33,762 nucleotides of DNA from Folioceros fuciformis (lineage: Eukaryota): positions 33,928 through 67,689 of the forward strand of contig JBNGIO010006036.1 in the NCBI GenBank assembly GCA_049999805.1, written 5' to 3'. The position numbers and the translations under genes were made by a program. The notes beneath the pieces were generated by a model that searched no databases, was not told where the DNA came from, and saw only the letters and a program-made list of their open reading frames with translations. Shown piece after piece: positions 8,130 to 33,762 of this stretch. The stretch's first letter is position 1, and the number at the start of each line of letters is the position of its first letter.

Positions 8130-8412
8130 TGTTGGGTTATTAAAGCCCAATGTGCTTAGACTAATGTGTTTAGTCTAAGATTAGTGTCTAGTTAAGTATC
8201 ATTAGTTTAAATTAGCTTAAGCTAATCTGTAGGAAGGTTCTTGTGCAGCTTCTTGTGAAGCTTCCTAGGGAGCTCTTCTAGAGGGTATATAAACCTCCTT
8301 GAGCTCCCTTGCAATGTGAGACTCTGTGTGTGAGAGTGTGACCTCTCTTTCTCCTCTCCTCCTTGCCTCCTCTTCTCCTCCTTCACCATGTGGCTCCTCT
8401 AGCAATCCTTCA
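8130..8412 (+). repeat. 5' LTR of copia element 1
   Basis: TGTTGGG...CCTTCA, 283 bp, with internal TATATAAA. Near-identical to 11562-11851. Confidence 0.92.
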
Positions 8413-8820
8413 GCTGGTTTTAGAGCTGGCATGGAGCAAGATTGGTGTTGGCTCTAGGTGATGGTTGCAGGAGCTCCGTGAGGAAGGCTCCGGAGTGAGA
8501 TGACATCCTGGGGTGCAGGGATCTCCATCCTCGTCGTGCAAGGCATCAGCGCGGAGCAGGAGTGGGAGCCAGGAGCGCGGGGTGTGGCCTAGGAGCGGGG
8601 CATCGTGGCCACGGGCGCCGTGCGGGCTGCAAGCCCCAGGCTCCCCGCTGCGAGCCGGGCGCCCGGCCAGAGAGGGCGCCAGGCCGGGGCACCTCCAAGC
8701 GGCGGGCAGCCCGGCCTTCAAGACACCAGGCCCCCGGCCATGGGGGTGGCGGGTGCCAGGCCCCGTCCGCCCTGTACAGGGGGTGCCTGACCTGGCCGCC
8801 CCACGGCGGGGAGGCTGGGG

Positions 8821-11519
8821 ATCAAGGATTATGTGATTTGTGTAACGGAACACCAAGTGTTTTCTTGTGGCATTGTCACTTAGGACATATGTCTCAAAAA
8901 GGAATGAAGATCTTATCTCATTTTGGTTACGTCCCTGCTTTTGACTTCTCCGACTTCTCTGTGTGTGAGCACTGTTTGTATGGGAAATAGACGAAGTCAC
9001 CACATGGAGCAAGAGGTAAACACAAAAGTAAACCTCTTGAGTTGGTTCACAGTGATGTTTGTGGACCTATGCCCACTGTATCGTTAGGCGGTGCATCTTA
9101 TTTTGTCACTTTCATTGATGACTTCTCACGCAAGGTGTGGGTTTATCCTTTGAGGAAAAAGGATGATGTTTTGACAGTGTTTTAGAAATTCGTCACCCCT
9201 GTGGAGAATCAGTCTGGCCTCTGACTAAAGTGTCTAAGGACAGACAATGGGGGAGAGTATGTCTCGAAGGCTTTCTAATCATTCTGTGATTCCAAGGGAA
9301 TCAAGAGAGAATTGACTGCGCCGTATACTCCTCCCAAGAATGGTGTGGCTAAACGGATGAACAGGACCATCTAGGAGAGGATGCGTAGTTTATTGTCAAA
9401 CTCTGGATTGCCTAACGGATTTTGGGCAGAAGCAGTGGTTACTACGGTGCATCTTATTAACAGATCTCCTAATAGGGCTGTGAATGAACAGGTTCCAGAG
9501 GAGATGTGGTCTGGCAAGAAGCCGTCATACAAGCATCTACGAGTGTTTGGCTGCAAGGCATACTACCATGTCCCGAAAGAGTTTCGGGACAAGTTGGCAC
9601 CCAAGTCCAAGAAATGTATTTTTCTTGGCTATGATGAATCTGGTGAGATGGGATATCGTCTGTGGGATCCAGAGGCCAAGAGGATGGTTTGCAGCAATGA
9701 CATGTTCTTCAATGAGACCAAGATGCACAAGAAGCCTACTCCAACTGTGAAGGTGCGACGGGTGGTTTTCCAAGAAGATGGACTTGACCGTCCTACGCAG
9801 GTTGAACATCGTGATATGCAGGAACAAGTTCCTCCACTTGTACAAGAGGAGAGAGTGCAACCAGCTCCGGTCGAGGCGCCATTGCTTCGTAGGTCAGGAA
9901 GGATCTTACGTCCTCCTCACAGGTATGTTGCATCTCTTGATTATGTCATGCTAACGAATTGTGGGGAGCCCTCTTGTTACCAAGAGGCCATGTCAGTGAC
10001 TAACAAGGACAAGTGGGAGAAGGCAATGCAGTCGCAGATGGATTCACTACATAAGAACCAAACTTGGGAGTTGGTTCGGTTGCCTAGGGGCAAGAAGACG
10101 TTGCCATGCAAATGGGTGTATAAGATGAAGGACATACCCCATTATGGCAAACCCAAGTACAAGGCACGATTGGTTGCTAAGGGTTTTAAGCAACAGCAAG
10201 GTATTGACTTTGATGAGATTTTCTCAGTAGTTGTCAAAATGACTACTTTGCAATGTGTTCTTGCTTTGGTTGCGAGGAACGACATGGAACTTGTCCAAAT
10301 GGATGTGAAGTCGGCATTTCTACATGGTGATCTCCAGGAAGAGGTATACATGCAGGAACCAGAGGGTTTCATTGAGAAAGGCAAAGAGAATCTGGTATGC
10401 AGGTTAAAGAAGAGCCTTTACAGTTTGAAGTAGGCACCCAGAGAGTGGTATTTTAAGTTCTACTCATTTATGGTTTCTCAAGGCTACAAACGTAGTGAGG
10501 AGGATCATTTCCTCTATATGAAGCAAGCTAAGGATGGAAGCTTACTCATTTTGGTCCTCTATGTGGATGATATGCTAATTGCTGGAAAAAGCAGTGATGG
10601 GATTTCAGTGTTGAAGTCAAAGTTGAAGGCTCGCTTTGACATGATAGACTTGGGAGAGGCAAGCCATATTCTTGGCATGCGTATTCGTCAAGAAAGACAC
10701 AAGCATTTGCTTTACTTGTCTCAGACTGCATACATTAACAAGGTGCTTCAACGTTTCAACATGTAGAAGGGGAAGGTATTGAGTACTCCGTTGCCTCCAT
10801 ATGTGAAACTTTCAAGCAAGGATTGCCCAAGCTCTACAGAGGACAAAGCTGAAATGACGAAGGTTCCATACTCATCAACTATAGGGAGTTTGACGTGTGC
10901 AATGATTGCTACACATCCTGACATTGCTTTTGCAGTGGGAGTGGTTAGCAAGTTTATGTCAAACCCTAGCAAGAAGCATTGGGAGGCAGTGAAAGGAGTT
11001 ATGAGGTACTTAAATGGTACAAAAGCTTTGTGCTTATGTTTTGGTAGTGAAGATGCATCTGACGTGGGATATACGGATGCTGATTATGCAAGGGATATGG
11101 ACAAAAGAAGGTCCACATCAGGCTATATCTTCATGTGCACTAGAGGGGTAGTCTCATGGCGATCTCGTTTGCAATCGTGCATAACGCTATCTACCACAAA
11201 GGCCGAGTATGTTGCAGCAACTAAGGCGTGCAAGGAAGCCATGTGGCTTGCTCGTTTAGTGGGAGATTTGGGGATCAAGGTTGAGGTGCCAGTGTTGCAC
11301 TGTGATAGCCAGAGTGCTATCCAATTGGCGAAGAATCTAGTGTTTCATGCGAAGACCAAATATGTGGAAGTGAAGTATCACTTCATTCGAAAGGTTTTGG
11401 AAGACAAGAGGGTACAGCTTGTCAAAGTTGACACTAGTCAGAACCCTACAAATGTTCTTACCAAGGGGCTCTCTACAGAGTAATTCGCACAAGCTCGAAC
11501 ACTCATGGGCATGAGGTAG
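8821..11519 (+). pseudogene. copia pol remnant: pre-integrase, integrase, RT, RNase H
   Basis: LWHCHLGH...CEHC, LELVHSDVCGP, RTDNGGEY, PKNGVAKR, YKARLVAKGF, QMDVKSAFLHG, LYVDDMLI, GYTDADYA, TTKAEY. Several premature stops. Confidence 0.9.
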
Positions 11520-11561
11520 ACCACTCTCCTATGAAGGTATGTTGGCCTTTAAGTGGGAGGT

Positions 11562-11851
11562 TGTTGGGTTATTAAAGCCCAATGTGCTTAGACTAATGTG
11601 TTTAGTCTAAGATTAGTGTCTAGTTAAGTATCATTAGTTTAGATTAGCTTAAGCTAATATGTAGGAAGGTTCTTGCGCAGCTTCCTGTGCGCTTCTTGTG
11701 AAGCTTCCTAGGGAGCTCTTCTAGAGGGTATATAAACCTCCTTGAGCTCCCTTGCAATGTGAGACTCTGTGTGTGAGAGTGTGACCTATCTTTCTCCTCT
11801 CCTCCTTGCCTCCTCCTCTCCTCCTTCACCATGTGGCTCCTCTAGCGATCC
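11562..11851 (+). repeat. 3' LTR of copia element 1, lacking the terminal TTCA
   Basis: Matches the 5' LTR with about 6 substitutions and one 11-bp indel by manual alignment. Ends GCGATCC and is fused to the RT of element 2. Confidence 0.9.
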
Positions 11852-14800
11852 AATTTGAGACAAGCAAAGCAAATGCTTTTGTCTATCTCGACGAATATGC
11901 ATGCCAAGAATATGGCTTGCCTCTCCCAAGTCTATCATGTCAAAGCGAGCATTCAACTTTGACTTCAACGCTGAAATCCCATCAATGCTATTTCCAGCAA
12001 TTAGCATATCATCCACATAGAGGACCAAAATGAGCAAGCTTCCATCCTTAGCTTGCTTCGTATAGAGGAAATGATCCTCCTCGCTACGTTTGTAGCCTTG
12101 AGAAACCATAAATGAGTGGAACTTAAAATACCACTCTCTGGGTGCCTGCTTCAAACCATAAAGGCTCTTCTTTGACTTGCACATCATATTTTCTTTGCCC
12201 TTCTCAATGAAACTCTTTAGTTGCTGCATGTATACCTCTTCCTCAAGATCACCATGCAGAAATGCCAACTTCACATCCATCTGGATAAGTTCCATGCCAT
12301 TCCTCGCAACCAAAGCAAGAACACATCGCAAAGTGGTCATTTTGATAACTGATGAGAAAATCTCATCAAAGTCAATACCTTATTGTTGCTTAAAACCCTT
12401 AGCAACCAATCGTGCCTTGTACTTGGGTTTGCCATAATGGGGTATGTCTTTCATCTTATACACCCATTTGCATGGCAATACCTTCTTACCCCTTGGCAAC
12501 CGAACCAACTCCTAAGTTTGGTTTTTATGGAGCGAATCCATCTACGACTGCATTGCCTTCTCCCACTTGTCCTTGTTAGTCATTGACATGGCCTCTTTGT
12601 AACAAGAGGGCTCCCCACAATCCGTTAGCATGACATAATCAAGAGATGCAACATACCTCTTAGGAGGACATGAAATCCTTCTTGACCTCCAAAGCACAAG
12701 CGCCTCAATCGGAGCTGGTTGCACTCTCTCTTCTTCTACAAGTGGAGGAGCGGGTTCTTGCACATCATGATGTTCAACCTGTCCCTAACGGTCAAGTCCA
12801 TCTTCTTGGAAGACCACCCGTCGCACCTCCACAGTTGGAGTAGGCTTATTGTGCATCTTGGTCTCATTGAAGAACACGTCATTGCTGCAAACAATCCTCT
12901 TGGCCTCTGGATCCCATGGACGGTATTCCATCTCACCAGATTCACCATAGCCAAGAAAAATACATTTTCTGGACTTGGGTGCCAACTTGTCCCGAAACTC
13001 CTTTAGAACATGGTAGTATGCCTCGCGGCCAAACACTCGTAGATGCTTGTAAGACGGCTTCTTTCCAGACCACATCTCCTGTAGAACCTGCTCATCCACA
13101 GCCTTATTAGGAGATCTGTTAATAAGATGCACCGTAGTAGCCACTACTTGTGCCCAAAATTCGTTAGGCAATCCATAGTTTGACAACAAACTATGCATCC
13201 TCTCCTGGATGGTCCTATTCATCCGTTCAGCCACACCATTTTGGGGAGGAGTATATGGGGCAGTCAATTCTCTCTTTATTCACTTGGAATCATAGATTGA
13301 CTGGAAAGCCTTCGAAACATACTCTCCCCCATTGTCTATTCTCAAACACTGGAGTCGTAGGCTAGACTGATTCTCCATAAGAGTGACGAATTTTTGAAAC
13401 TCTATCAAAACATCATCCTTTTTCTCAAAGGATAAACCCACACCTTACGTGAGAAATCATCAATGAAAGTGACAAAATAAGATGCACCACCTAATGATAC
13501 AATGGGCATAGGTCCACAAACGTCACTGTGAACCAATTCAAGAGGTTTACTTTTGTGTTTACCTCTATCTCCATGTGGTGACTTCTATTTCTCATACAAA
13601 CAGTGCTCACACGGAGAAATCGGAGAAGTCAAAAGCAGGGACGTTACCAAAACGAGATAAGATCTTCATTCCTTTTTGAGACATATGTCCTAACTGACAA
13701 TGCCACAAGGAAACACTTGGCTATTTTGCTACACAAATCACATGATCCTTGACAGTGGTTACATGAAGTGAGTACAAAGTGCCACACTTCGATCCACGAG
13801 CTAACATAAGAGAAACTTTGGAGATCTTCCAAGAATTATCCCCAAACCAACAGTGGGGGCCAGCGTCATCCAACTGCCCTATGCCAATTATGCTTTTTGT
13901 TAACTTCGGAACATGCTTAACATCCTTCAGTACGAATGAAGAAGATCCGTTGTCAAACTTCAGCTGCACATCACCAACGAGTGTAATCTCGCATGCATAG
14001 TTATTTCCAAGCTGAGCACATCCTTTCCTAGTAGCATCATAAGTGCTAAACCACTCCCTATGCGGAGTAACATGGAAAGATGCTCCAGAGTCAATTATCT
14101 AATTAAAGAATAAGTGACTTTCCACAGCTGTCAGTTGTGCAGAATCGAAGGAAGAAGAGATAAGAACATCTCCATCATCAACAGAATTCACCTCGTTAGG
14201 CTTGATACTCGGACTTGCCTTGTTATCACTCTGCTTCTTCTCCTTTCCTTTGTCCTTCTTGAACTTCTCGCAGTCCCTTCTGATGTGACCCTTTTTGTGA
14301 CAATGGTAACACTCAACATTGTTACGACTACAAGATTTACTACGGGAANNNNNNNNNNNNNNNNNNNNNNNNNNNNNNNNNNNNNNNNNNNNNNNNNNNN
14401 NNNNNNNNNNNNNNNNNNNNNNNNNNNNNNNNNNNNNNNNNNNNNNNNCAATGGTAACACTCAACATTGTTACGACTACAAGATTTACTACGAGAAAGGC
14501 TTCGCTCCTTGTACTTCCTCTTTGAAGTGGACCTTCCTCTTACCATGAGGGCAGTGGAACCTTTCAAAGGTTCCATATTCTTCTTGTTCACCTCTTCTGT
14601 TAAGAGGCTACCTTCTACATTTACATGGTGAGACCACTGGCAGGAGCAGAATTACTCAAAGCTGTACGAAAGGTGTCCCAACTCTCAAGTAATGTGACCA
14701 AAAGAAACATAGCTCTCACAAAATCTGGGAACGAGATACCTTGAGATGAGAGCTGGATGAAAATGGTATTGAACTCATTGAGATGATCGGACATCCTCAT

Positions 14801-16377
14801 CCCTTCCTCCATCTTCAAGTCCACCAGCTGTTACAACCAGTACACTTGAGAAGCCGCACTTTGCTTCTTATACATGTCACACAACTTCTGCCATAGCTCG
14901 TAACTTGTGGTCTTGTCTTTCACATTGAAGTGGACCGACTTCGACAATGTTAGCATGATGGTAGATCTAGCAAACTCATATAGATCTTGCCACTCATCCT
15001 GAGTCATGCTAATAGGTTTCACACCTAGCAACTTTCTAGGCTTGATCTGCTTTTTTTGCTCTAGAACATTATACACTTGTTCTTTTCAGAACGGGAAGTT
15101 AGTACCATCTAACTTCTCGATATTGAACATAACATTTTTTGAGGACGTCATCCTTCATAATCGATGCAAATCAAACAAAGGCTACTTAGAAACGATCTGA
15201 ATGTAATATAGATTTTGAAAGTTACCCTTATGGTAATCATGCCTTGTTCCGCATCGGCTAACACAACTTGTAGACCTCAAACCATTGCACGAGTCTATCC
15301 ACAATCTCAGCAATCAGCACCACCGTTCTTGCCACAGCCAAATGCACTATTTTTGCTACCTCGTAGCGTTCAAAAGCTTGTGACAGTCTTCCTCTGTGGC
15401 GTCGACTGTCCTGCGACGCCGGCTGACTTAGGCCCGACGCAGTTTGACGCCTTACTGCGCCCGCCTTCTTGCACCTAGCGCGGCGGGGCTACCATCCCTC
15501 TACGTGGTGCGGCCTCCGCCCCACGCCCTGCGCGGCAAGGCCTATCTGCCCGGTGCCCGCAGAGTGGCGCTCGCACGGCGTGGGTGGGTGCCCCGCGCTG
15601 CAGAGTGGCGACCCGCACGGGACAGTAGCGCCCTCGCAGGCCCCGCATTGAGGGGGCCTGGGGCCTTGAGCCCCACGCCCGCGCCCTGCGTCTACGCACG
15701 TGCCCCACTCTCACGCCCACGCCCTGCGCCCCACATCCCGTGCCCGTGCCCCACACTAGGGCAGGGGCCTCACACCCTGCACTAGGGCAGGCATCCAGTG
15801 TGGCGCGGCGGCGCCCTCTTGGGTGCCTCGCGTTGCCGAAGCCTGCTGCACCCCCCGCAGTGCCGGAGCCTAGCGCCCCGCGCTGGGGCAGACACCCCGC
15901 GTAACGCAAGCATGTGCCCCGCGCTGCCGCGGCCGGCACCTAAGCACGGCAGGGCTGGAGCCCCCTACACCCCGGGATGCTACCCTCACTCTGGTGCCTT
16001 CCTCACGGCCTTGTTGCGCCTTTGTGCATCTTGTCCGCAGCACCTACAGCCGTCACCCTCTTGCTCCACAACCAACCTCTGATATCAGTTGAAGGATCGC
16101 TAGGGGAGCCACATGATGAAGGAGGAGGGGAGCAACATGATGAAGGAGGAGAGGAGAAAGCAAGGTCTCTCACACACTGTATGGCAAGGGAGCTCAAGAG
16201 GGTATTTATACCCTCTAGAAGAACTCCCAAGAAAGCTTGAAAAGAAGCTCACAGGAAGCTACGCAAGAAGCTTCCTAAAGATTAGCTTAAGCTAATCTAA
16301 ACAAATGATACTTAACTAAACACTAGTCTTAGACTAAACACGTTAGTCTCAGCACATTGGGCTTTAATAACCCTACA
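11852..16377 (-). mobile_element. Ty1/copia element 2 (sister of element 1), 3'-truncated within RT
   Basis: 5' LTR at 16377-16090, PBS TGATATCAGAGG at 16087-16076, GC-rich leader. gag from about 15158 (FNIEKLDGTNF), zinc knuckle CYHCHKKGHIRRDC, protease IIDSGASFH, integrase, and RT through YVDDML to LSQ. Confidence 0.92.
16090..16377 (-). repeat. 5' LTR of copia element 2
   Basis: Reverse-complement homolog of 8130-8412 with TG...CA ends, more diverged than the element 1 LTR pair. Confidence 0.9.
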
Positions 16378-17436
16378 CTATGCATACAACAGGTGTGTGG
16401 GCTGTCTAGGCAGAACCCTGTGCTCAAGTGCATATGGATGCAATATCTCCATAAAGGTAACACTTTTGGAAATTGTGGGCTGCAAAGTGATAGGGTTGAT
16501 GAGCTTATATGCCTTGGTTATCTCAGTATAGCCAACAAAAACCAAAGGAAGAGCCTTGTTATCTTATTTTCGCTGCTTCTCTCCAGGGACATGCAAAAGC
16601 CTTTGAGCCAAAAACGCATAAATGCATGACACTTGGCTTTCTATTCTAGAAAAATTCATAGGGAGTTTTATTTGGCAGAGCTATGGTGATGAGCTTGTAT
16701 GAGGTGTAAGTAGCTATGACCACCGCTTCCACCCAATATGGAGATAAAAGGCCAGACCATAGCAACATGGACATGGTCATTCCCATTAGCATGTGGTTCT
16801 TCCTTTTCGCTACACCATTCTGCTGTTGTGTGTAGGGGACAATAAGCTGATGTTTGATGCCTCTATCTTCCAGGAATTTTGTAAAAGCATTACTAACAAA
16901 TTCACCGCCATTGTCAAATCTGAAGACCTTGAGGAGGCAGCCAATTTGCCTTTGCACCATCAACAGCCACTCTTGGAGCAAAGGAAAAGTCTTGTTCTTC
17001 CAGTGCATAGGGAAGGTCCAAGTATATTTGCTGAAGTCATCGGAAGTGTGAGGTAATATTAGCCCCACCTAGTGAAGAACTTGCAGTCTTCCTGAGATGT
17101 CTGAATGCACTAAATCAAGGACGACTGTTGTTCTATGAGTAGGTGTGCAAGGAAATGGTACTTGATGCTACTTTGCCAATGCATAGATCTCACATATAGG
17201 AAGCTCCTTAAAACATGAAGGTAAGGGTTCTCTGTAATAGTCTTGTCTAGAAGATGCCTAGAGTTTAGCCTTGTTAGCATGACTAAGGTCTACATGCCAC
17301 AGCTTGGCTAGTTGAGGAGCTTTTAAGCTACGAAGCGTGGTAGAATAAGCCTGCTTTCAGTGTGTGCAAGATATGTCTAAACAATACAATTTTGCCTCAA
17401 GAAAGGCCTTAAAAATATAAATATCATGGAAATTAC

Positions 17437-17569
17437 GTCTAGAGAAGCAACATGTATCCTCTGACACGGTAAGGATCAAGTCTAGAGAAGCAACATGTAT
17501 CTTTAGACACGGTAAGGATCAAGTCTACAGAAGCAACATGCATCCTCTAACATGGTAAGGGTCAAGTCT
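17437..17569. repeat. 43-bp tandem triplication inside the copia 3 protease region
   Basis: GTCTAGAGAAGCAACATGTATCCTCTGACACGGTAAGGATCAA-like units start at 17437, 17480 and 17523. Confidence 0.9.
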
Positions 17570-17816
17570 TTCATTTTCATGAGTCTGATCAAAGACATAA
17601 GGTTCTTAGCCATCTTAGGTACGTATAAGACATGAGGAAGAACTAACATTGTGTCATCATGCAACAGAAATTTGTAGATACCTGAACCAAAGATACTTAA
17701 ACAAGTGGCGGTTTTCTCATCACCAAGGTAAACCTTCTTTGGGACAGAGGAAAGAGTCAGGCAAGTGAAAAGAGATTCATCGTGACAAATATACATTGTT
17801 GCCCCCATTGTCCGAG

Positions 17817-20094
17817 TGTGAACCTCCAAAGTTTGGGGTAGTGGTTTGTTTTGGTTGAAAAAGGGTGAATAGTGGTATTGTTTGGTTTTCTTTTTCTACT
17901 TATTTTCCCTAATTTTTCTTTATTTTCCGGTCATTTTTCCTATTTTTCCTTGTGCTAATAAGGTTAATTGACCAGTAAATAATTGGTTTGGTTATTAGAG
18001 TGGGTATAGGTTTGGTCCCAGACTTGGAAAAGTTTAGGTCTGGTACCGGACCATAGAGTTGGAAAGGTTTGAATTTAGGTTTGGTTATTGGTTTAATATT
18101 AATTAAAAATAGTATCAAATAATTGTTTGAAACTAGGAGCGGGAATATGGGGCTATGTCAAGGTGGTTTGGCTGGCTAACAGGGTTGCATGATTGGCTGA
18201 ATGGCCATGAGGGCCGCACCCTAACTAGGTCAGAACTGCGGCCACGCCCATCTCCATTCCTCTACCTCTCTTCCTTCGTCTTCCTCCATTCTCCTCTTGT
18301 CATTTCCTCCTTGATCCAAGCTGCAGGCAGAAGGACCCTGAGAGTTGGGATTGAATGCGCACCGGAGGAGCTTTAGCCGAGCTGCAAGACTTGGGCATTG
18401 CAGGGACTAGCAGCACAACCCGGTCGGTCTCCTGATCCACCTTCATCCTCGATTTCCTCTATTCAGTTCCCATCGGCGCCTTGTCTTGATTCTTCGAGGC
18501 AGACAGTTTTGATCAGCCAGTTAACCATCTAACCGTTGCGTCCAGCTATCCAGCAGGCTGCTCTGCTGGATGGCTGGACCCTAAACCCTGGATTCCAGTG
18601 TGATTTTCCTCATCCCGCTTCCTATCCCTTGTTTTGATCTTGCAGCAACCCCGTAGCTTGGTTTCGCTAGCCTGATCCCCCCTGCCCCATTTCGATTTTT
18701 TTTAGCCAACTACCAGCGTCCTATGCCCAACCACTCATGTAGCCCGATCTCACCAAAGCCCACCACCCTGAGCTTAGCTTGCCATCCTGATCCACCTCAC
18801 CTGGCTAGCAAATCACTAGCGCCTGCTGCTAGAGCCCACTGGCACTGTCCCTATCCTCACCGATTTCTCAACCCGCCACCACGTTGCATGAAGCCAAAGC
18901 TGCCGTAGGTTGGAGGAGCCCGGATCCAAACTGGGACCTCTAGGCCAGCTAGGCAGTGCGTTGACGTTGCCATCTCCCACTCCCCGCTAGTGTTCCCCCC
19001 CCCCCCCGTAGAACATCTCTTAGGACTAAACTAACAAACTGACGAGTGCTCCTCCCATGAGGGATGTGCATCAGCCTTTGTGGGAACCGTTAGGGGAGAT
19101 GCTACAGGACTGAAGGTGTCTAGCTCGGAGGCAACCTCAGCCATCATGGGAACAGTGGCAGGAGAAGCCTTTGCCTCAACAATAAGAAGGTGGCGCCCAC
19201 CAGATCTAGAAGAGTGGACAATAACCAAGGATCAACAAAGGGTATTGGTAGGGTCAGTAAGGGGAGTGGCATCTCATCAAGTTGATGGTAGGGTAGACTA
19301 GTCTAGAATAATGGTGTGCTATAAGCTATTGTTTTGGTTGTCGTGTCCTAGTGGTCAACTTGTAGAGAGAGGAAAGGGACTAGAGCTAGGAGTCCTCTAT
19401 AAGAGGCTGTGAGCCTCTAGAACTTGCTTATCACTTTACGATCTCTCTCGGGCTGTCCCTGCTTGGATATAGCAGTGTGTGCCGGCTGTGCATGTTGTGC
19501 AACGTTTGGTAAAGCTTTGAGAAGTGGTGGCCAGGGTTATGGGCCGGGTCACTTTAATTCTTGATCGTGCTTTCCGTGTCGTGCCCCATGATCTGTCATT
19601 CTTGTTTCCTCGCAAGGCTAGAGTGAGTGCCAACCATGCTTGCATGCTGTCTAGTAGGATTGTGGGTGGAGGCATGCTCTTTTTTGGGCTTGTTCTAGTG
19701 ACTCTTGCCAAGTGGGGGAGTCAAGAGGGAAGTGTAGAGGGTAGTGGTGTTGTTGATGGTGCTGGAGTGAGTGAGTAAGTGAGTGAAGTAAGTGAGGGAA
19801 GTCGTAGTCCTGAGAGGTTAGTGTCGTTGTAGTGGCTCGAGTGAATTTGTGGGCACCGAGAGAGGTGCAGTCAACCGTTAGACAATGAGGAATGTCCCAC
19901 ACTTGATCGGAGCGGGAGGGGAGCCCTCAAATCCGTCATCGAGTTGATTGAGTCTGACCCTCCATCCATAGCAGCAAGGAACCACATCGCTCCTTCGTGG
20001 GAACGAAACCCAATGTCTCAACAACAATGGGATAAGTGTGGACACTAAAGGTCGAACCCTTTGGCAAACAGTTGACCGGGGTTTTGCCACCACA
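17817..20094 (+). mobile_element. Solo LTR of family X, 2278 bp
   Basis: TGTG...CACA ends with an imperfect 5-bp TSD (CCGAG / CCAGG). The host copia protease frame rejoins when it is removed. Left end matches 1-96 and right end matches 31927 onward. TATAAG at about 19398; no TE coding domains recognised inside. Confidence 0.85.
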
Positions 20095-20636
20095 CCAGGT
20101 ACCAACTATTAGCCTCACTTGCTTATAGTATTTAGATAGATGGTAAGAATCTTGACAACTGGCTTGCCTAAAATGTGTGTTGAAAAATCCACTATATGCT
20201 CATCTTTGGGGTGCTGGGTTGTTGAATTTGCAGTTGTAGGGCGAGGTACAACCCGCTAAGGTTCACTGGCCTTCTTCTTGCGACATTCCCTAGCCCTGTG
20301 TCCAAGTAATCCACACCAATTCCAGTAACCTGAGGGATCAACTGAGGCCAAGGGCCACACTGCGGTTGCCTAGGGAGGAAGGCTATTAGGCCCAAAAATA
20401 ACAATCAAAGGATTACTTCGATGGCCCACCGCACTCGTTTCCGGGGTAAGAAGAGAAAAATTAGTTTTCCAACAAATGGTCATTTTCGGCAGACTCGAGT
20501 TTATCAAAGTAGAAGACATGCCAAACCCCTGGCTAGTAAGTGGACGAGCAAATTGTGGCCTGAGTACACTTGCAACTGTCCAGGTTAATTACGCCCCACC
20601 TTCTACATGATGGCAGAGTACCGGATCTTGAGCGGA

Positions 20637-21443
20637 CCGTCCTTGTGTCACCTCATTAAGTGGCCTATAATCCCCACACATCCTCTTCTCTGTTCAATTA
20701 CCATGTACATCTTTCTTTGGTGGGAGTATTGTGGCTGTTGCATATTTTGACTCTGAAGATCTAATCAACCCCACTTCCAACAACTCTTAACACTTCTTGT
20801 TCACAATCTCATTCTCCACCTTCCTCAAACGATATGGCCTCCTAAAAACTAGCTCCTTAGTCTTAAGACAAATTTTGAACTTAAATGTCTTGTGTCTACC
20901 CTTTCCTTATTGGAAAAAGCAAACACTTGCCTTCTATCATCTAAAATCTTCCCTATGCTTAACATCCATCTCCTCACAAACATCCCAATGAAAATTTGCA
21001 AACTCCCGTTTTTCACAAATGTTCATACAACCAACTAAACCAACACTGTTTCTAAACTCATGCCCAGCTTCCACTGGCTTTCCACCCACCTTCATTTGCT
21101 TACTTCTGTTAAAATCATCACCCAATGTACTCTCAACTTTCCTCATCCTCTTGGTCTCTTCCCCGACTTATGGCTTAGTGTCATCACTTGATTCACACGA
21201 ACCTTCTACTTTTAATCTTGTCATCAAAATAACTTTCTATTTCTGCTTCCGCTCTTGATAAATTTTTATGGACATCATAAGCAACTTGAGCGTATTCAAA
21301 TCCATAGCTTGCCCAAGATTTTTATTTCTCTGACCACATGTTAAACTCTTTGCGTAAGTGGAATCCATCTTGAAGCCCATTGCTCTTTCGCTATATGTAG
21401 GTGATGGAGCATCCCACACATTTCTTCTGACATCAAATACCAT
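20637..21443 (-). pseudogene. Second gypsy fragment: DNMT C-terminus (motifs IX-X), linker and RT N-terminus
   Basis: MVFDVRRNVWDAPSPTYSERAMGF...RNKNLGQAMDLNTL, then RRPYRLRKVENEIV...PPKKDVHGN*TEKRMCGDYRPLN. Diverged paralog of 24433-23640. Confidence 0.88.
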
Positions 21444-22400
21444 TTAACTCATCCCTATGTTAAGCTATTAACATATTATCCATTGCCATAGGCATTATCC
21501 TTCTAAACAACTCCGCTCTATGTGCGGCTATCTTTAACCACTTATTAGGATCGTCCAAATCCACTATAGCATTCACCTTGTCTTCTAACATCCCAGATAG
21601 CTGTGGTCTACGCCCAAACAACAACATGTACGGTGAAAACTTTCCCAGCGATGCTTGCCTACTCATCCTATAACCCATCGCAAGAAATGGTAACATCCTA
21701 CCCCACTCACTCTTGTCCATTACCAGAGAAATTTTCCTCACAGCACTCTTACAAGTCTGTACCATTCTTTTTGCCAAACCATCAGCCTCCGGGTGATTTC
21801 TTAAAGTTACCCTATGATCAATAAGGTACTGATTTAAAAATTCATCAAATTCTCCCATAAATTCAATACCTTAAAACTTCTGGACACTCCCCAAAATCAC
21901 TCAACACATGATTAAGAAATGCTTCCTTAATGTCATGTGACTTCTTCTCTCTCAAAGGCACCAAAACTATCCACTTAGAAAAATGTTCTATCATCACTAA
22001 CACATATTTAAAACCTCTACGCGTGACTGGTAACTCTCTAGCCAAATCCAAACTCCACCTATAAAACATCCCCCTAATAGGCAACGGATGAAGCTCAGAA
22101 GTTTTGCCTGAAAAACTTGCCTTCACCCTATCACAAACCTCGTAAGTGGACACCACCTTCTCTACTACATCCATCATTCCTTTCCAATAATAATTGTTCA
22201 TGAGCAAACTCAAGGTTCTTTTTGTGCCAAAATGTCCTAACTCCACAAAAATCTTTCTTGCCAAATTCATTCTTTCTTTAGGTCTTGGTACCACCTTCAT
22301 ATTATCTTTAAACAATAACTTATTGTCAACCCATACATATCTCCTACTTCGCTTTGTCACCCTATCATTCTCCTTCTCTATTAATGCCTCCTGATTGCCA
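21444..22400 (-). pseudogene. gypsy integrase (zinc-binding and DDE core), C-terminally truncated
   Basis: LGHFGTKRT...YYWKGM...EVCDRVK, LHPLP...RWSLD...IEHFSKW, HPEADGLAKRMVQT, SPYMLLFGR. Confidence 0.9.
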
Positions 22401-22559
22401 CCCTTTTTCACCCTCTCTAATGTACTCTTATCTTCCCACACATCTACTGACATCGAAGGAACTCCCAACTCCACCAAATTCACCAAGTATGCACTCGGTG
22501 TCCATCTGGACACCACCAGATTATAGTGAACCCTAACATTCTTATCAAAATCCTGCCTA

Positions 22560-23930
22560 GCAACTGTTGAATCCCATGAACTGCCTAATGGATTCTTTGA
22601 CAACACATCTGCATTTGCGTGTTTCACTCCCGCCCTATGCTCANNNNNNNNNNNNNNNNNNNNNNNNNNNNNNNNNNNNNNNNNNNNNNNNNNNNNNNNN
22701 NNNNNNNNNNNNNNNNNNNNNNNNNNNNNNNNNNNNNNNNNNNTCCGTCACCAACTTAAATTGAGCCCCATACAAATAAGGCCTAAAATGCAATACTGCC
22801 CATACCGCCGCAAAACATTCCCCATGATATGAGGAATAATTCTCTGCAGAATTGTTACTCCTGCTTGCATATGCTACCACATGCTCCACCCACTCTCATC
22901 AGCCTGTGCCAGCACTACTGCCAAACCAAGTTTGCTCCAATCTATATATAACTTGAACTTTCTATCAAAATTGGGTCTTGTCAATAAAGGCTTGCTCATC
23001 GAAATGTCCTTTATCTCCTTAAATGCCCTCTGCTGATCTTCTCCCCAAACCCACACTGCATCTTTCTTTAACAACATTGTCATCGGTTTTACCACCACAC
23101 TATGGTTTGCCACAAAATTGCGATAATAATTTACCAATCCTAAAAAGGAGCCCAAAGTTCCCACATATGAAGGTGGCATCATATTGCTATCGCTTCAACC
23201 TTGACGTCAAATGGTACCCCTAGGCACTATAAAATGTCTCAAATATGCTATCTTAGAGGATCCAAACCTGCACTTTTGTGGATGACATGTCAAACCAACC
23301 TCCTTCAGTCTATCCAACAGTCGCCTAACATTCTCCTTATGTTTTTCCACATTGTTACTAAAAATTATTATATCATTTATGTAACATCTAGTCAAAGACA
23401 ACCCCCTCAATGCTTGATCCATCGCTCTCTGAAAAGCACTAGGAGCACTCTTCAACCCAAATGGGATAACCACCCATTCCCACAAACATCTATTACCCCA
23501 AAAAGCAGTCTTCTTCTTATCCTCCTCTTCAATTTCAATTTGATTAAAACCACCCCTCAAATTCAATGTTGAAAGTATCTTACATTCACCAATTGGATCA
23601 AAAATTTCCTCTAGAGTTGGCATTGGATACCTGTCCATAGGTGTCACTTCAGTAAGCGGCCTATAGTCACCACACATTCTCTTTTGTGTCCAATTGCCAT
23701 GCGCATCCTTCTTTGGTGGAAGCACCATAGTTGTAGCATACTCTGACTCCGAAGACCTTATCAATCCAGCTTCAAGCAGCTCTTGACAATTCTTGTCCAC
23801 AATTTCATTCTCCATTTTACTCAAACGATATGGCCTTTTAAAACCGGTTTAGAAGTTTTAAGCCGAATCTTAAACTTAAACGTCTTGTGCCTGCCCAACT
23901 CCTTATTGGAGAAAGCAAATACCTGCCTCC
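22560..23930 (-). pseudogene. gypsy reverse transcriptase and RNase H
   Basis: RMCGDYRPL, KKTAFW, PFGLKSAP, CYINDII (degenerate YIDD), SFLGLVNYYRNFV, KLYIDWS, VAYASRS, GECFAAVWAV, HANADVLS. Frameshifts, plus an N gap at 22644-22743. Confidence 0.93.
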
Positions 23931-24262
23931 TACTTTCAAGAATCCTTATAAAATCTCCTTATCTTCCAAAGTTATCTCATCGGAAATATCCCACTAAGAA
24001 TCCATACATGTTTCTCACAAACCTTAACCTCACAACTTGAGCTAATCACACTCCCAGCTTCCCCCTCTACCTTTGTCCCACATCTCATCTGCTTGTTCTG
24101 CTTACCCCCATCACCTAAAACCTCGTCATGCTCTCTCATTCTTTTAGTCTCCCCCTAGCGTCTTAACCTTCATTTCTTCTTACTTTACCCAAACTATGTC
24201 TCTCCAACCTTGTGCTCAAAATCTTTCCACTTTCTCTTCCACTCTTGATAACCTTTTATAGA

Positions 24263-25208
24263 CATCATAAGCCACCTAATTGTATTTAAATCCATAGCTT
24301 GTCCGAGTTTTTTATTCCTAATCTCAAATGTTATGCCTTCCACTTCAGTAGTATTTGTACCAAAACCCATCGCCCTCTCTCTCTCCATGAGAGATGGTAT
24401 ATCCCACACATTCCTCTTCGTATCGAATATCATTCCAGGTCCATCCCCCTTAAATGCATTGGCACCTTCAAAACTAACAAATGTCGGTAATGCCTCCTAA
24501 GCTCACCCTTTTTATTTACACAATAAAAGGGTTGTCTCTCATCTGAAGTCACCTGCTTACTCACTCGTCCCTCATTCAATATCTTATCAACTATGAAATC
24601 ATCATTCCTACGCCATTGACTCACATGCATATGCAACAAATGCTTAGGCATCATGTTATTCCAAAAACAGCGATGCCTATGAGCCCTAGATCCAAACTAC
24701 ACTGCATCCAACTTTATAGGCTCACCCAAAAAATAATTGATCTCCTCAAAATCTCGCCTCAATGCCATTCTTCTGTCCATTTGTGAATCTACATTCTCAA
24801 TAAAAAAAAACCACATTCTTTCCTCTGATGTTTTTGCACCAAATTCAAAATCCTAATTAGCTCATAAAATAACACCGACCTACAATCCAACAAGCCTTTT
24901 CCCTTGCCTGCCATTGAATGCCCTTGACATTCCCAACCAGCTATTATTAGATTAATTTCTTCCTCCACTCGAAATTGTATCAATCCAATAAGCCTAACAT
25001 CTTGCGACCAAGCAAAAAACGCTTGCTTCATAGCTTCAACCTTTAATTGTTCAGGATACTTTTTACATAATTTAAACACCCTTGCCTTCGCAATTGCTTG
25101 ACAAACTTCATCTGGGTCACAATAAATGTAACGTCTAACTACATACCCAGCGGCCAACACAGCCTCTAGGCCAGATGCAATCCCAGCAAACAATTCAACC
25201 ACAACCAA
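24263..25208 (-). pseudogene. DNMT3-like C5 cytosine-specific DNA methyltransferase catalytic domain embedded in gypsy pol
   Basis: Motifs in canonical order: I VVVELFAGIASG, II YIYCD, III QDVR, IV IIAGWECQGHS (Cys codon 24929-24927), V RSVLFYELIRIL, VI FIENV (24798-24790, after a slip in the A9 run at 24802-24810), VIII AHRHRCFWNN, IX ERERAMGF, X RNKKLGQAMD. One stop (24699-24697) and two frameshifts. Confidence 0.92.
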
Positions 25209-25539
25209 TCCATACTCAGACGAACTCAATGTCACAAGTTTATTACACACAGGTTCAAGTTTACAAACTGCTTCCTTTGTATAAGCTTGAATTTTATCAT
25301 CTAGCTGAAACTCAATCTGCCGCTTTTCAAGTTCTCTAAGTTCAATTTTAGCTAATGCTCTACCAACATTCTCTCATTGCAACTTCTTCCACTCTGTTAT
25401 GACTATATTCTTTTAAACATAACTTATCCATATGACGCTCCACCCACAATTTATCATCTTCTTCCTCCTGTTCATCCCAAGAAGTTGCCATGTTTACCAC
25501 ACACGCATCTTGCATGTCCTCCTGTAATTGCAACTTAAG

Positions 25540-26000
25540 TGGAATTGTTGCTACTCTTATTCCTTCACCTTGTCGCCACCCTGGACGATAGTAAAACTCC
25601 TCTGTTCATAAGTCCACCCCTGCTTCATGCATGAACAAAGCCTCTGTTCCCAAAATAACATCAAAATTTCCAAATTTGACAATCAAATATTTCATATCAA
25701 TCACTGTCTCTTCTTATGTCCCAGGCTTAAAACATAACTGCAATTTCTCCTTAGTCTCTCCCATCACTGCCTCCAAACCTTCATTGGCCATCCTTATCTT
25801 CCATCTTATCTCTTGTATATCTCCCTTTCTCAGTCCCATAGCATACGCTATGTTGAAATGAATCAATGTAGGTTGCGCCCCCGAATCTATTAATACCTTC
25901 TCCAGCGCAAAACCTTCTATCAAAAATTCACACCCACCATTGTTCAGAAATGCAATTCCTGGTCTAACTTTTGTTCTGTCGCCATCATTTCGCATATTGC
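25540..26000 (-). pseudogene. gypsy aspartic protease
   Basis: KVLIDSGAQPTLI...IRMANEG...FDVILGTEAL...EFYYRPGWR, with two in-frame stops. Confidence 0.85.
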
Positions 26001-26165
26001 TATTGAAACAAAGTGAAATTGTCTTGTTTAACTTTCCATCCACTCTACTATCACGTCCTATAAAAGTTCTCGAATTTTTGACTCGTTCACCCCCACTTTG
26101 ACGCCCAATTCTAACACACTTCAAATACAACCAATCACATCACTCTGAGACACCTGCATTCTCTT

Positions 26166-26395
26166 ACTCACTCGTCTTGCAAGGGAGAATACTTATGGAC
26201 TTTGGCACTTGCACAACCCTCTGCTGTCCAACCAGGGGGGTTGATGATGACGTGCTCACAAATCGAATTCCTAGTGGGATCCGTAACAACCACATCAACA
26301 ACACAAACATGTTCTCCCCTAGTGAAGAAAAGGTCGGCTCTAAGTGAAACCCCATTGCGCAAAGTATATGGACGCTCCCTATACGGAAGAAACCC
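26166..26395 (-). pseudogene. Fragment of a restriction-like endonuclease (RLE) of a CRE/R2-type non-LTR retrotransposon
   Basis: GFLPYRERPYTLRNGVSLRADLFFTRGEHVCVVDVVVTDP...PGWTAEGCASAKVHKY fits the E...RxD...DVxVxxP...KxxKY pattern. Out of frame with the flanking gag. Confidence 0.65.
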
Positions 26396-30609: not shown

Positions 30610-31077
30610 TGTCATGCCATTGCAACGCTTTCCTATTCTCTAACGTGTGCAAACGCTGATTGACAACACAGAACCTTTGATTCAATTGTTCAGTCTGCTA
30701 CAAGCTTCTTGGTTACAATTGCTCATTGCAAAAACACTAAGTGCATCACCGCTCATCAAGCTTTCTAAGCGAACTATCAAAAGAATATTCGATCATTCTT
30801 TCTCCATCACTATATACCTACAACATACCGTGCTAACCACCTGAATGGTCATTTCCAAACCGTTATCAACTGTCTACAAAGTTAACCATCAAAAACCCTA
30901 CTCTTCAACCATTCCTTCGCGAGAACTTTTGCTTGCGAACTGTCTCTTTAGTCAAAACGTAAGGGATTTACCCTTTATGCTAGCGTATTTGTCCCAAGCA
31001 AACAGCTTTCGCAGTTGCGACCTGCACAAAAAGTTCTCACAAATGCAAAACTCTATCAGACTTTCTAAGTCATGACA
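30610..31077 (-). repeat. Probable 5' LTR of the DNMT-gypsy (468 bp)
   Basis: Bounded by perfect 7-bp inverted ends TGTCATG...CATGACA, with TATATAG on the minus strand at about 30810-30816 and an abrupt switch to another element at 31078. No second copy and no clear PBS found. Confidence 0.55.
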
Positions 31078-31926
31078 TGTGGTGCTAACACCAATTTTAT
31101 GGCCAGAGGTTTTGCCCAACGATGGGGATTGGATATCGAGCGGGGTTGTGGAGCAGTACACCTAGTAGACGGGTGTATGCAACATCGGGCGACATTGAGT
31201 CATGTAGTTAGTTTACGGATAGGGGTTCACTATGAGCAAATTTATTTTACCATTACAGACTTAGGATATGGTCATGACCTGATTCTAGGGATGCCATGGC
31301 TCGAGGATTGGGAACCCACCATAGCTTGGCGTGGGAGGGAGCTCACCCTCCTAGTCCATGGTCGACACTTAGTTATCCAAGGTGGACGGCCTTAGGAACC
31401 TCAAAATCAGGGTTCGGCTGTAGAGGTGGCTTGTGATCCTAGGTGCCAGGCTACACCTTCCTCTTTGAGTGTTATTAAAGAGCAACTTTGCCCAACGCAA
31501 CCCGATCAATTACAGGCACCTGAACATGATAAGCCCTTGCAAGAATTATTAACCGAGTTTGACAATGTTCTAATTAACAGGTTGCCGACAAGGTTACCCC
31601 CATCCCATGATGTTGATCATTGAATTGAGCTTCTACTAGGTATTCATAAGCCCCCGTATCGTCTTGTGTATCGGATGTCCCCACTAGAGATAGAAGAGTC
31701 GGCTCGCCAGGTTGAGGAGTTGGTGAAAAGGGGCTATATATGACCATCCACCTCCCCCTATGGGGCGCCTATTCTGTTCTCACGGAAGAAAAACGGTAAG
31801 CTTCGTATGTGTATTGATAACCAAGGCCTTAATTCGGTAACTAAGTGAAATATGTTTCCTTTACCCCGCATTGATGAGCTTTTGGAGGGACTAATTGGTG
31901 CCCGATATTTCACCAAGTTGGATATG
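31078..31926 (+). pseudogene. Chromovirus-like Ty3/gypsy protease-RT remnant
   Basis: CGANTNFM...[63 protein letters not shown]...YFTKLD. Cut on both sides by LTR insertions. Confidence 0.88.
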
Positions 31927-33762
31927 TGTGGAGGCAAAACCCCGGGCACCGATCGCCAACGGGTTCCACCTTTAGTGGCCACACTTATCCCACTGTCGTT
32001 GAGACATTGGGTTTCGTTCCCACGAAGGAGCGATGGGGTTCCTTGCTGCTGTGGAGGGAGGGTCGGACTTGATCGACTCGATGACGGATTCGAGGGCTCC
32101 CCTCCAGCTCCGATCAGGCGTAGGACAGGCCTCGCTGTCCGGCGGTCAGCTGCACCTCTCTCGGTGCCCACAAACTCACTCCAGTCACTACAACGACTCT
32201 AACCTCTCAGATCTACGTCTTCCCTCACACACCTCACTCACTCTCTCACTCTAGCACCAACACCAGCAACTACCAGCAACCAGCAACGACACCACTACCT
32301 TCTACACTTCCCTACGGACTCCTCCTACCCGGCAAGAGTCACTAGACTAACCCCAAACAAAAGGAAGAAGGGAACACACTCCCCTCTTGGGTATCTCCTC
32401 CCCACAACCTTACCAGACGCCATGAGACATGGTCGGCCTACAGCACTTGACCAAGCAAGGAACAAGAGTGGACAGGTTGAGAGAAAGACACACCCTTTAC
32501 AATCAAGAGCTAGGGGCAAGCCCCTACACCCTGGTCATTACACCTTGTGATCCTACCAGACACTATACAACCGGCAACACGCTGCCCGCGATCCTACCAG
32601 ACACTGTACAGCCGGCAACACGCTGCCTGCGATCCTACCAGACACTGTACAGCCGGCAACACACGGCTTGCGATCCTACCAGACGTTGCACAGCCGTCAA
32701 CACACTGCAGGTCCTAGACCAAGCAGGGACAGACCACAAGAGCTCAAGAAGAGAGGACCTCCAAGAGCTCACAAAGAGATAGACTGACTCCCAAAAGTGA
32801 ATGACTCCCTCCTCCTACAGGCTCACCTGATCTTATAGGAGCCTCTCTCTCTCTCTGACTTCACCTCTCTCTAACTTGAGAAATATTATTTTAATAGCCT
32901 AGTCGGCTGTCACCAGCCACTTATTTAGACTTCTAGCACAACCTGCCACCAATGAGCTTCTGGCCCTACTACCACAAGGATCTACCACCTCTTAGACTAT
33001 CCACAGACTTCGGAGGATGTCTGATCTTCAAAGATCTGCGGACGCCGCCTCTTCCTTGCTGGATGGTCGCCCGCTAAGTCTTCCCCTGCAACTGTTCACC
33101 CTTGGTGGTTGAGCCAGCCTCTAGGGAAGGAGCATGAGCAATGGGAAAGATAGAGAAGAGGTGGGAAGGAGTGGGATCAGCAGCCGGAACCTGGCCTGAA
33201 AACGGTAGCTTATTCAGCGGGATCAGCTCCCAGCTGAAATGGTTCCTCGGCCATGGAAGACTGACCCTAGGGTGCTGGGGAAGGCCCTGAACTAAGGGGA
33301 AAAGAAAGCAGGTGAAACGGAGTTGAAATGGAATTTCTGGAATTAAATCCAGAAAATAGGGAAGAAAATAGGAAAGGGGAAATTAGGAAAATAAAAAGAA
33401 AAGGAATACGGGGGTACCTATACGGTATATGTATCAGTACGTATTAAATACGTATCTAAACCGTATAAAATACAAGGGGGTATACGTATACGGACCGTAT
33501 ACGGTCTCTAAAACAAAACTCCTTACTTGGAGAGGGAGGGAGCGGGAGCGGGATCGGGATGGCGAAGGAGCGGGCAAGGGAGCGGGAGGAAATCAGCCAA
33601 CCATGGGGGGGGAAGACGGGCAGAATGGAGCACGGGAGCGTGCGGGGCGGTCAGATCCGGCGCCGCGGTGGCTGGGGAAGTCGGCGTGCCGCCGCAGCTA
33701 GGAAGATTGGTCAGTAGCGGGGTAGGATGGGCAGGAGGCGGAGGTAGAGATGGATAGCAGCG
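31927..33762 (-). mobile_element. LTR related to family X (3' end at 31927), running off the window
   Basis: 31927-32350 aligns to the reverse complement of 20094 down to about 19690. TATAAG on the minus strand at about 32832-32837. Similarity fades beyond about 33100, so the right part is less certain. Confidence 0.75.
32549..32712. repeat. 41-bp tandem array, 4 copies
   Basis: GATCCTACCAGACACTGTACAGCCGGCAACACGCTGCCTGC-like units start at 32549, 32590, 32631 and 32672. Confidence 0.92.

Follow-up and report, generated by a model that had tools for sequence, protein, structure and literature searches.

A dead internal fragment, very probably from a long-separated lineage of Ty3/gypsy elements carrying a DNMT3-type methyltransferase

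Two truncated copies of a DNMT-carrying element

The window, that is, the whole stretch of 33,762 nucleotides analysed here, is rich in repeats and contains a Ty3/gypsy-type element on its minus strand at about 21445-26139, subsequently referred to as copy A. Its upstream part encodes a putative aspartic protease with the motif LIDSGA (25714-26139), assigned by a weak tblastn match to positions 786-930 of the protein P0093 (20% identity, E 7e-6); this region gave no Pfam match. It is followed by a DNMT3-type domain at 24230-25373 (PF00145, E 1.6e-6; three-frame translation; tblastn against 150 relatives), which carries motifs I, IV (GWECQ), VI, VIII, IX and X, is spread over three frames and contains one in-frame stop. 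A linker defined by translation and alignment (23947-24229) leads to the RT and RNase H (22746-23946; RVT_1, E 5.9e-25; RT_RNaseH_2, E 1.5e-12; tblastn), and the zinc-binding and core domains of an integrase that lacks its C-terminal part occupy 21445-22639 (Integrase_H2C2, E 2.8e-11; rve, E 1.3e-6). Just upstream of the integrase there is an assembly gap of 100 N (22644-22743). The succession of RVT_1, RT_RNaseH_2, Integrase_H2C2 and rve is colinear with P0093, and the element is a Ty3/gypsy element with the order PR-DNMT-RT-RH-INT. We found no pair of direct repeats (LTRs) flanking either copy in the window; copy A breaks off within the integrase, and no 5' end was found for it. Copy A is dead, a pseudogene like its neighbour.

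This neighbour, copy B, lies at 20645-21443, also on the minus strand, and is a paralogue of part of copy A: it comprises the 68 C-terminal codons of the DNMT, the linker and some 100 codons from the start of the RT, so that of the gypsy domains proper (PR, RT, RNase H and integrase) only the RT start is kept. The original prediction had described a paralogous DNMT C-terminus with 41 of 68 amino acids identical, and BLASTP of 21240-21443 against 24197-24496 (both minus strand) returned precisely these 41 identities, without gaps and with an E value of 4e-29. These 68 codons (21240-21443, aligned to 24230-24433 of copy A) hold motifs IX and X only. The blocks ERAMGF and LGQAMDLNT, said to be invariant, are indeed identical in both copies, and their designation as motifs IX and X is consistent with a profile alignment to residues 237-278 of DNMT3A. 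Likewise, the 14 residues following ERAMGF (KMDSTYAKSLTCGQ versus GTNTTEVEGITFEI) agree at just 2 positions, as had been stated. The proposed span of 20637-21443 encloses a real feature, but its left end was set ~8 bases too far out, since homology to copy A stops at 20645. At the nucleotide level, this homology extends from about 21443-21455 down to 20645, with 70% identity between 20645-21329 and 23641-24319 over 706 alignment columns.

Directly after its DNMT C-terminus, which gave tblastn matches to P0093, P0022, P0028 and P0071, copy B has an in-frame stop. The linker (20951-21239) is weakly conserved, with ~50-60% nucleotide identity to copy A, and contains four in-frame stops. Over 67 residues, the RT part (20645-20950), delimited by alignment to copy A, shows 59-61% identity to P0274, P0275 and P0279. 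It is interrupted by a single frameshift, located after ...SNKE, and by two in-frame stops, and breaks off abruptly after ...RPLNEVT. With both ends cut, seven in-frame stops and at least one frameshift, copy B is no gene, and the fragment itself is without function. Its value is that of an old outgroup copy that allows selection to be measured. We also considered an exon of a host gene or a domesticated DNMT, and rejected both: the 68 codons are devoid of catalytic motifs, a stop follows immediately, and the surroundings are homologous to RT.

Junctions of the two copies

The integrase of copy A and the DNMT C-terminus of copy B meet at 21444-21460 (minus strand), as defined by the ends of tblastn alignments and by contigs without differences to the window. 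The alignments of P0093, P0022 and P0028 stop at 21445-21451. Homologous integrases run on through ...AQHRD(T/Q/E)L, whereas in copy A a stop replaces the Q and the sequence ends with ...HRDEL at 21445. Because the homologous integrases continue past ...AQHRDEL, copy A must be incomplete towards its 3' end and abut a copy B whose 5' part is missing. On the other side of copy B, the alignment to copy A stops at 20645 and the adjoining sequence (20400-20644, minus strand) is unrelated. The rest of copy B (RT, RH and INT) was searched for in the window and none of it was found.

Contigs from two of three DNA sequencing runs of the same sample (X1, X2 and X3) bear on both joins. Zero-difference contigs covering 20909-21492 (X1 and X2) cross the junction near 21444, and those covering 20400-20877 (X1) and 20400-20936 (X2) cross the break at 20645. 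Both junctions are thereby crossed by at least 48 bases, in runs that may be the assembly's own data and whose support for the joins is then perhaps not independent. The simplest origin of the A/B join would be a deletion or an illegitimate recombination between two neighbouring elements.

Type of the methyltransferase and its catalytic loop

A profile built from 14 relatives matched DNMT3A (E 1.4e-19) and DNMT3B (1.3e-16) better than a plant DRM-type entry (2.1e-9) or M.HhaI (4.1e-8), and we therefore classify the domain as DNMT3-type. The N-terminal half of the copy A DNMT by itself matched DNMT3A at an E value of only 0.06. Motifs I (ELFAGIASG), VI (ENV) and VIII (FGSRAHRHRCFW) are present in copy A across three frames, while copy B is without this whole region.

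C5 methyltransferases normally have a proline before the catalytic cysteine. Here, glutamate takes its place (window 24834-25211, minus strand; also P0010, P0022, P0027, P0093, P0273 and P0275). Copy A and 12 of the 14 relatives aligned have GWECQ as their motif IV; the other two have GWPCQ, and W, C and Q are invariant. The Glu-Cys catalytic loop may be new.

An exhaustive search with the N-terminal half of the copy A DNMT returned 647 proteins at E <= 0.001, 255 of them at <= 1e-10. A word-indexed search with the same half against longer proteins found nothing, and a protein atlas yielded generic DNA_methylase clusters with bacterial labels only.

Selection on DNMT, linker and RT

For the comparison of the two copies, a MAFFT alignment was cut into gap-free, frame-checked pieces, and substitutions were counted according to Nei and Gojobori (NG86) and evaluated with a Fisher test. 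The DNMT C-terminus (69 codons) gave pN 0.224 and pS 0.704, hence pN/pS 0.32 and an omega of about 0.13 (p 2.8e-8; Sd 27.3 of S 38.8, Nd 37.7 of N 168.2). For the RT start (98 codons) the values were pN 0.112, pS 0.639, pN/pS 0.18 and omega about 0.08 (p 3e-16). The linker core (51 codons) was much less constrained, with pN 0.40, pS 0.77 and pN/pS 0.52 (p 8e-4); its pS is saturated and omega not computable. No constraint is seen in the 17 codons just 3' of the DNMT, where omega is about 1.1, or in the last 16-17 codons of the linker, with values of 0.65-1.3 across three frames. Wrong-frame controls ranged from 0.87 to 1.37 for the DNMT, from 1.0 to 2.0 for the RT and from 0.45 to 0.98 for the linker core, none of them significant.

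A low omega in the DNMT together with wrong-frame controls around 1 implies that the lineages of A and B diverged while the DNMT C-terminus was translated and selected. The constraint on this part appears, from the substitution counts, to have been roughly as strong as that on the RT. These figures come from a single pair of sequences with only 69 DNMT codons. Omega is rough because dS is near saturation (2.1), and since both copies are pseudogenes, part of their divergence is neutral decay. Motifs I-VIII of the copy B lineage lie beyond judgement, as only the last 69 DNMT codons survive.

Identity between the copies is mosaic: 68% in the DNMT, 50-60% in the linker and about 80% in the RT. Since pS is alike in DNMT (0.70) and RT (0.64), this mosaic reflects differing constraint and not differing age; no recombination is needed to explain it, and the DNMT and RT parts are equally old. 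The two copies are also equidistant from outgroups: copies A and B share 26 and 24 of 54 residues of the DNMT C-terminus with P0275, and 41 of 67 residues each of the RT start with P0279.

The original prediction had proposed dN/dS for this family, and the values obtained (0.13 for the DNMT, 0.08 for the RT) are far from the ~1 that would speak against purifying selection. Its statement that at least two old subfamilies kept a functional methyltransferase while transposing is borne out as far as two old lineages under purifying selection are concerned (omega 0.13); that the enzyme was functional is deduced from the substitution pattern, as both copies in the window are dead. Activity of the ancestral enzymes would be in keeping with this pattern.

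Reading frame across DNMT, linker and RT

The DNMT and the RT had been described as lying in the same net frame. This is correct, if only formally, in so far as the copy B DNMT C-terminus and the RT body from FRRPYRL onwards share a frame. Seven stops interrupt this frame in copy B (21443 to 20646), and 12 interrupt its counterpart in copy A (24496 to 23849). An open DNMT-RT fusion is present in neither copy, and the shared frame is no evidence of an intact one. The RT begins, in A and B alike, with codons (K/RIL..RRQVFAFSNKE) that are shifted by +1 against the frame of the DNMT C-terminus and the linker core; in copy B these are 16 codons (KILDDRRQVFAFSNKE). A 1-base gap of its own then restores the frame of the RT body in each copy (alignment columns 679 and 734). 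A simple ancestor with a single ORF would need two independent indels within the same ~60 bases.

Alternative explanations

Programmed +1 ribosomal frameshifting occurs in Ty1 and Ty3, and the arrangement just described could be taken to mean that RT-RH-INT was reached by such a frameshift at the end of the linker, the same net frame being a product of private 1-base losses. For this it can be said that the linker core is coding in one frame in both copies (pN/pS 0.52, p 8e-4), that the RT N-terminus is coding in the +1 frame (16 codons, pN/pS 0.19, p 0.002), and that the indels between A and B in the interval separating the two sum to a multiple of three. However, in the closest intact relatives (P0273, P0275, P0093 and P0071) a single ORF runs through DNMT, linker and RT, and reading the overlap by eye reveals no canonical slippery site. 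Gap placement is unsure in this interval, which is conserved less than any other part of the alignment, and at 23839 only about 41% of the X1 contig depth differs from copy A by an indel. We regard programmed frameshifting as unlikely.

Even less credit can be given to two explanations that question the pair as such. The segments are ~3 kb apart on the same strand and both copies are dead now, as would be expected if copy B had arisen when a segment of copy A was duplicated locally and had then drifted neutrally, its conserved blocks being due to chance. Drift, however, predicts equal change at all codon positions, and identical bases at first, second and third positions number 54, 54 and 36 of 70 in the DNMT C-terminus and 86, 91 and 56 of 100 in the RT. 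The pN/pS values of 0.32 (DNMT) and 0.18 (RT), set against ~1 in the wrong frames, the equal distance of A and B from outgroups and a contig of a third lineage elsewhere in the reads (see below) argue in the same direction, and we consider a neutral duplication extremely improbable. The arrangement could also be an artefact in which repeats of the same family were misjoined during assembly and which corresponds to no real locus. The family is highly repeated, and the window contains three runs of exactly 100 N, one of them within copy A. Against this stand the zero-difference X1 and X2 contigs over both junctions, and we find a misassembly very hard to credit; even with a wrong join, the sequence of copy B and its divergence from A would stay real. 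Our preferred reading of copy B is that of a dead internal fragment of a Ty3/gypsy element with a DNMT3-type enzyme between protease and RT, from a lineage long split from that of A, and we hold this to be very probably correct.

Further copies in the sequencing reads

Contigs of the three runs were matched to 20400-26200 at a likeness of at least 80%, which gave 1019 (X1), 924 (X2) and 1574 (X3) contig pieces; a further run, X4, contributed none. Among the X1 pieces, 117 were at least 99% alike and 301 were under 90%. Zero-difference single-locus contigs had a depth of about 7, and the summed depth over copy A was higher by a factor in the tens, which is not to be taken as a copy number. By contrast, the bin specific to the copy B linker (20982-21175) was near single-locus depth, and the lineage of copy B must therefore be rare or old. 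One contig of 1272 bases differs at 19 of 120 bases from the DNMT C-terminus of B and at 79 of 392 from the DNMT of A; by its sequence, it is to be placed in a third lineage. The frame of copy A changes near 24803, 24492, 24222 and 23839. At these four places, indels relative to copy A are found in 40-64% of the X1 depth summed over contigs, so that the frame breaks are neither universal in the family nor private to this locus.

The in-frame stops (21460, 24600-24700, 20790, 20700 and 21238) mostly replace Gln, Arg or Trp codons where a comparison is possible, which points to C-to-T or G-to-A changes. Differences in the X1 contigs comprise 253 C>T, 218 T>C, 148 G>A and 112 A>G, with 15-35 in each transversion class. 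The excess of transitions and the stop positions would fit a decay of methylated cytosines. CpG observed/expected was 0.32-0.54 in the elements and 0.52 in the whole window, and no element-specific signal was found in this ratio. X3 contained 0.04 of the sampled words and an excess of G>A (322) and C>T (176) places, often at full contig depth, which would agree with a library converted by bisulfite or enzymatically. Should X3 be such a library, methylation over the copies could be read from it.

Other features of the window

Read in two frames, a stretch on the plus strand at 34-430 codes for the C-terminal tail of an integrase and for a PHD finger (...CNGGYHLFYLQPPLAEVPEQLWYCPSC...). Its product resembles the tails of P0278 (43-72% identity) and P0279 and of polyproteins with the order RT-RH-DNMT-INT-PHD, and the stretch probably represents the 3' coding end of a further member of this family that is truncated by the start of the window. 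An inverted match of 97 bases (94% alike) links the window start (1-97) to 17816-17912 at the edge of a copia fragment.

The window also holds other repeats. Two opposite Ty1/copia copies occupy 8130-16377 (8822-10731 versus 13752-11848, 91% alike), with LTR-like repeats at 8130-8408, 11562-11851 and 16094-16377, and at 16646-17895 there is another copia fragment, with integrase and beta-barrel. Two segments of about 430 bases (19677-20095 and 31926-32363) form an inverted pair and are 82-85% alike; the right arm falls within the RT of a different gypsy element (31069-32200, plus strand), and the pair probably represents two insertions of a small unrelated repeat. A search of the window against Rfam gave no matches.

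Exons of a host 14-3-3 gene, epsilon-like and resembling 'GF14 iota', are found at 3482-4203 (minus strand), with moss, conifer, lycophyte and fern matches of 86-90%. For the exon at 3799-4104 (minus strand), the identities were 90% with Physcomitrium, 88% with conifers and 87% with Sphagnum, Ginkgo and lycophytes, and no match reached 100%. On the basis of these exon identities, the host looks like a land plant.

Proposed history of the two copies

The lineages of A and B would have split long ago, and while they were transposing, the DNMT C-terminus and the RT would have been translated and kept by purifying selection, with the linker between them much freer to change. Later on, both copies presumably decayed as they accumulated frameshifts and stops, the latter in many cases by C-to-T or G-to-A changes. 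Copy B would have been shortened at both ends, and its attachment to the truncated integrase of copy A would go back to a deletion or to illegitimate recombination.

Methylation usually silences retrotransposons, and elements that carry a methyltransferase themselves are counter-intuitive. Following de Mendoza et al. (2018), we infer that the enzyme may, in the course of retrotransposition, methylate the DNA copy of the element itself or DNA close to it.

More tentatively, and with the balance of our judgement somewhat against it, the two copies might belong to one long-lived gypsy lineage that has the DNMT3 upstream of the RT, a Glu-Cys loop and probably a PHD tail, extends from streptophyte algae (Klebsormidium, Closterium) to land plants and is highly repeated here. 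If so, a methyltransferase borne by an element would have been kept across several hundred million years, and the enzyme could contribute to, or exploit, the methylation of repeats by the host. A programmed frameshift between DNMT and RT would be a further, improbable trait in this branch.

Comparison with relatives and known systems

We examined 152 related proteins (150 listed matches and two cluster members). The RT precedes the DNMT in 37 of them, and in 28 of these 37 an integrase also follows the DNMT; PHD fingers occur among those scanned with Pfam. The DNMT precedes the RT, as in the window, in ten of the 152. In a FastTree of 87 DNMT domains (local SH-like supports), eight rows with the DNMT before the RT form one group that implies a single change (support 91); P0093 lies outside the 86 DNMT rows that passed the coverage filter. 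Beside this group, copy A forms a long branch; its identity to any row is at most 41%.

A search with the copy A RT found P0273 (59% identity) and P0275 (53%), single ORFs with the order DNMT-linker-RT-RH(-INT), as well as an RT-RH fragment of the liverwort Calypogeia fissa (53%) and five Closterium proteins (48-56%). P0273, P0275 and P0093 share with copy A the domain order, the GWECQ motif and a comparable linker. By BLASTP over the whole RT ORF, identities in the set that also includes the Calypogeia and Closterium proteins are 48-59%; in tblastn, the RT piece of P0093 is 44% and the DNMT pieces of P0273 and P0275 are 34-51% identical to copy A. Identity does not exceed 59%, and P0273, P0275 and P0093 are intact single ORFs, unlike the two broken copies in the window. 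For these three proteins and those of Calypogeia and Closterium we found no published description. P0278 and P0279, which match the copy A integrase at 52-54%, end in a PHD finger. The RT-RH-DNMT-INT-PHD polyproteins (P0010, P0022, P0027 and P0028) have a DNMT of the same DNMT3-type clade, the GWECQ motif and an RT and integrase of the same gypsy family, but here the DNMT follows the RNase H instead of preceding the RT.

The comparison with published systems draws on excerpts of the papers cited. Few cases of retrotransposons with methyltransferases have been published, namely from dinoflagellates, Klebsormidium, Cymbomonas and Euglena. In KnitGypsy-Dnmt3 of Klebsormidium nitens, a non-rearranged DNMT3 with conserved key residues lies within the gypsy pol ORF, and its copies show purifying selection on the DNMT with Ka/Ks < 0.2 (PMC5890265). 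The same paper contains the proposal that enzymes borne by elements could methylate retrotranscribed DNA (de Mendoza et al. 2018) and reports expression of a DNMT in yeast as a methylation-free host (PMC5890265). The kind of element is therefore already known, and the idea of purifying selection on a gypsy-borne DNMT, published for KnitGypsy-Dnmt3, is not new (PMC5890265). Common to that element and the window are a DNMT3-type domain in a gypsy pol and a low substitution ratio (< 0.2 there, about 0.13 here). Unlike in the published description, by which alone the two are compared, the host here looks like a land plant and not like Klebsormidium; the DIRS-like repeats reported for KnitGypsy were not seen in the window, where both copies are truncated.

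Among known cases, an excerpt of a 2026 preprint lists "streptophytes (Gypsy-DNMT3)" (10.64898/2026.05.21.726589). In the part available of PMC12344493, which cites de Mendoza 2018, some DNMT3 members are placed inside LTR/DIRS retrotransposons of streptophytes and dinoflagellates; the LTR family is named Copia there and Gypsy in the 2018 paper. SymbioDIRS-Dnmt3, SymbioLINE-Dnmt and EpiLTR are also described as retrotransposons with a captured cytosine methyltransferase (PMC5890265; 10.64898/2026.05.21.726589), but their backbones differ (DIRS, LINE and a chromovirus with DAM), as does the DNMT clade of SymbioLINE and EpiLTR. No report of a gypsy-DNMT element in a land plant was found in the literature searched, a set that does not cover subscription journals.

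By this comparison, with KnitGypsy taken from its description, the family in the window is a new, deeply diverged member of the DNMT3-carrying gypsy kind. The land-plant-like host, the closest RT kin including a liverwort and Closterium, and the Glu-Cys-Gln loop may be new. Abundance in a genome resembling that of a land plant would widen the known host range, as would the two positions of the DNMT within gypsy pol that public data contain, with hundreds of relatives lacking a name; taken together, they would provide material on what the enzyme does for the element.
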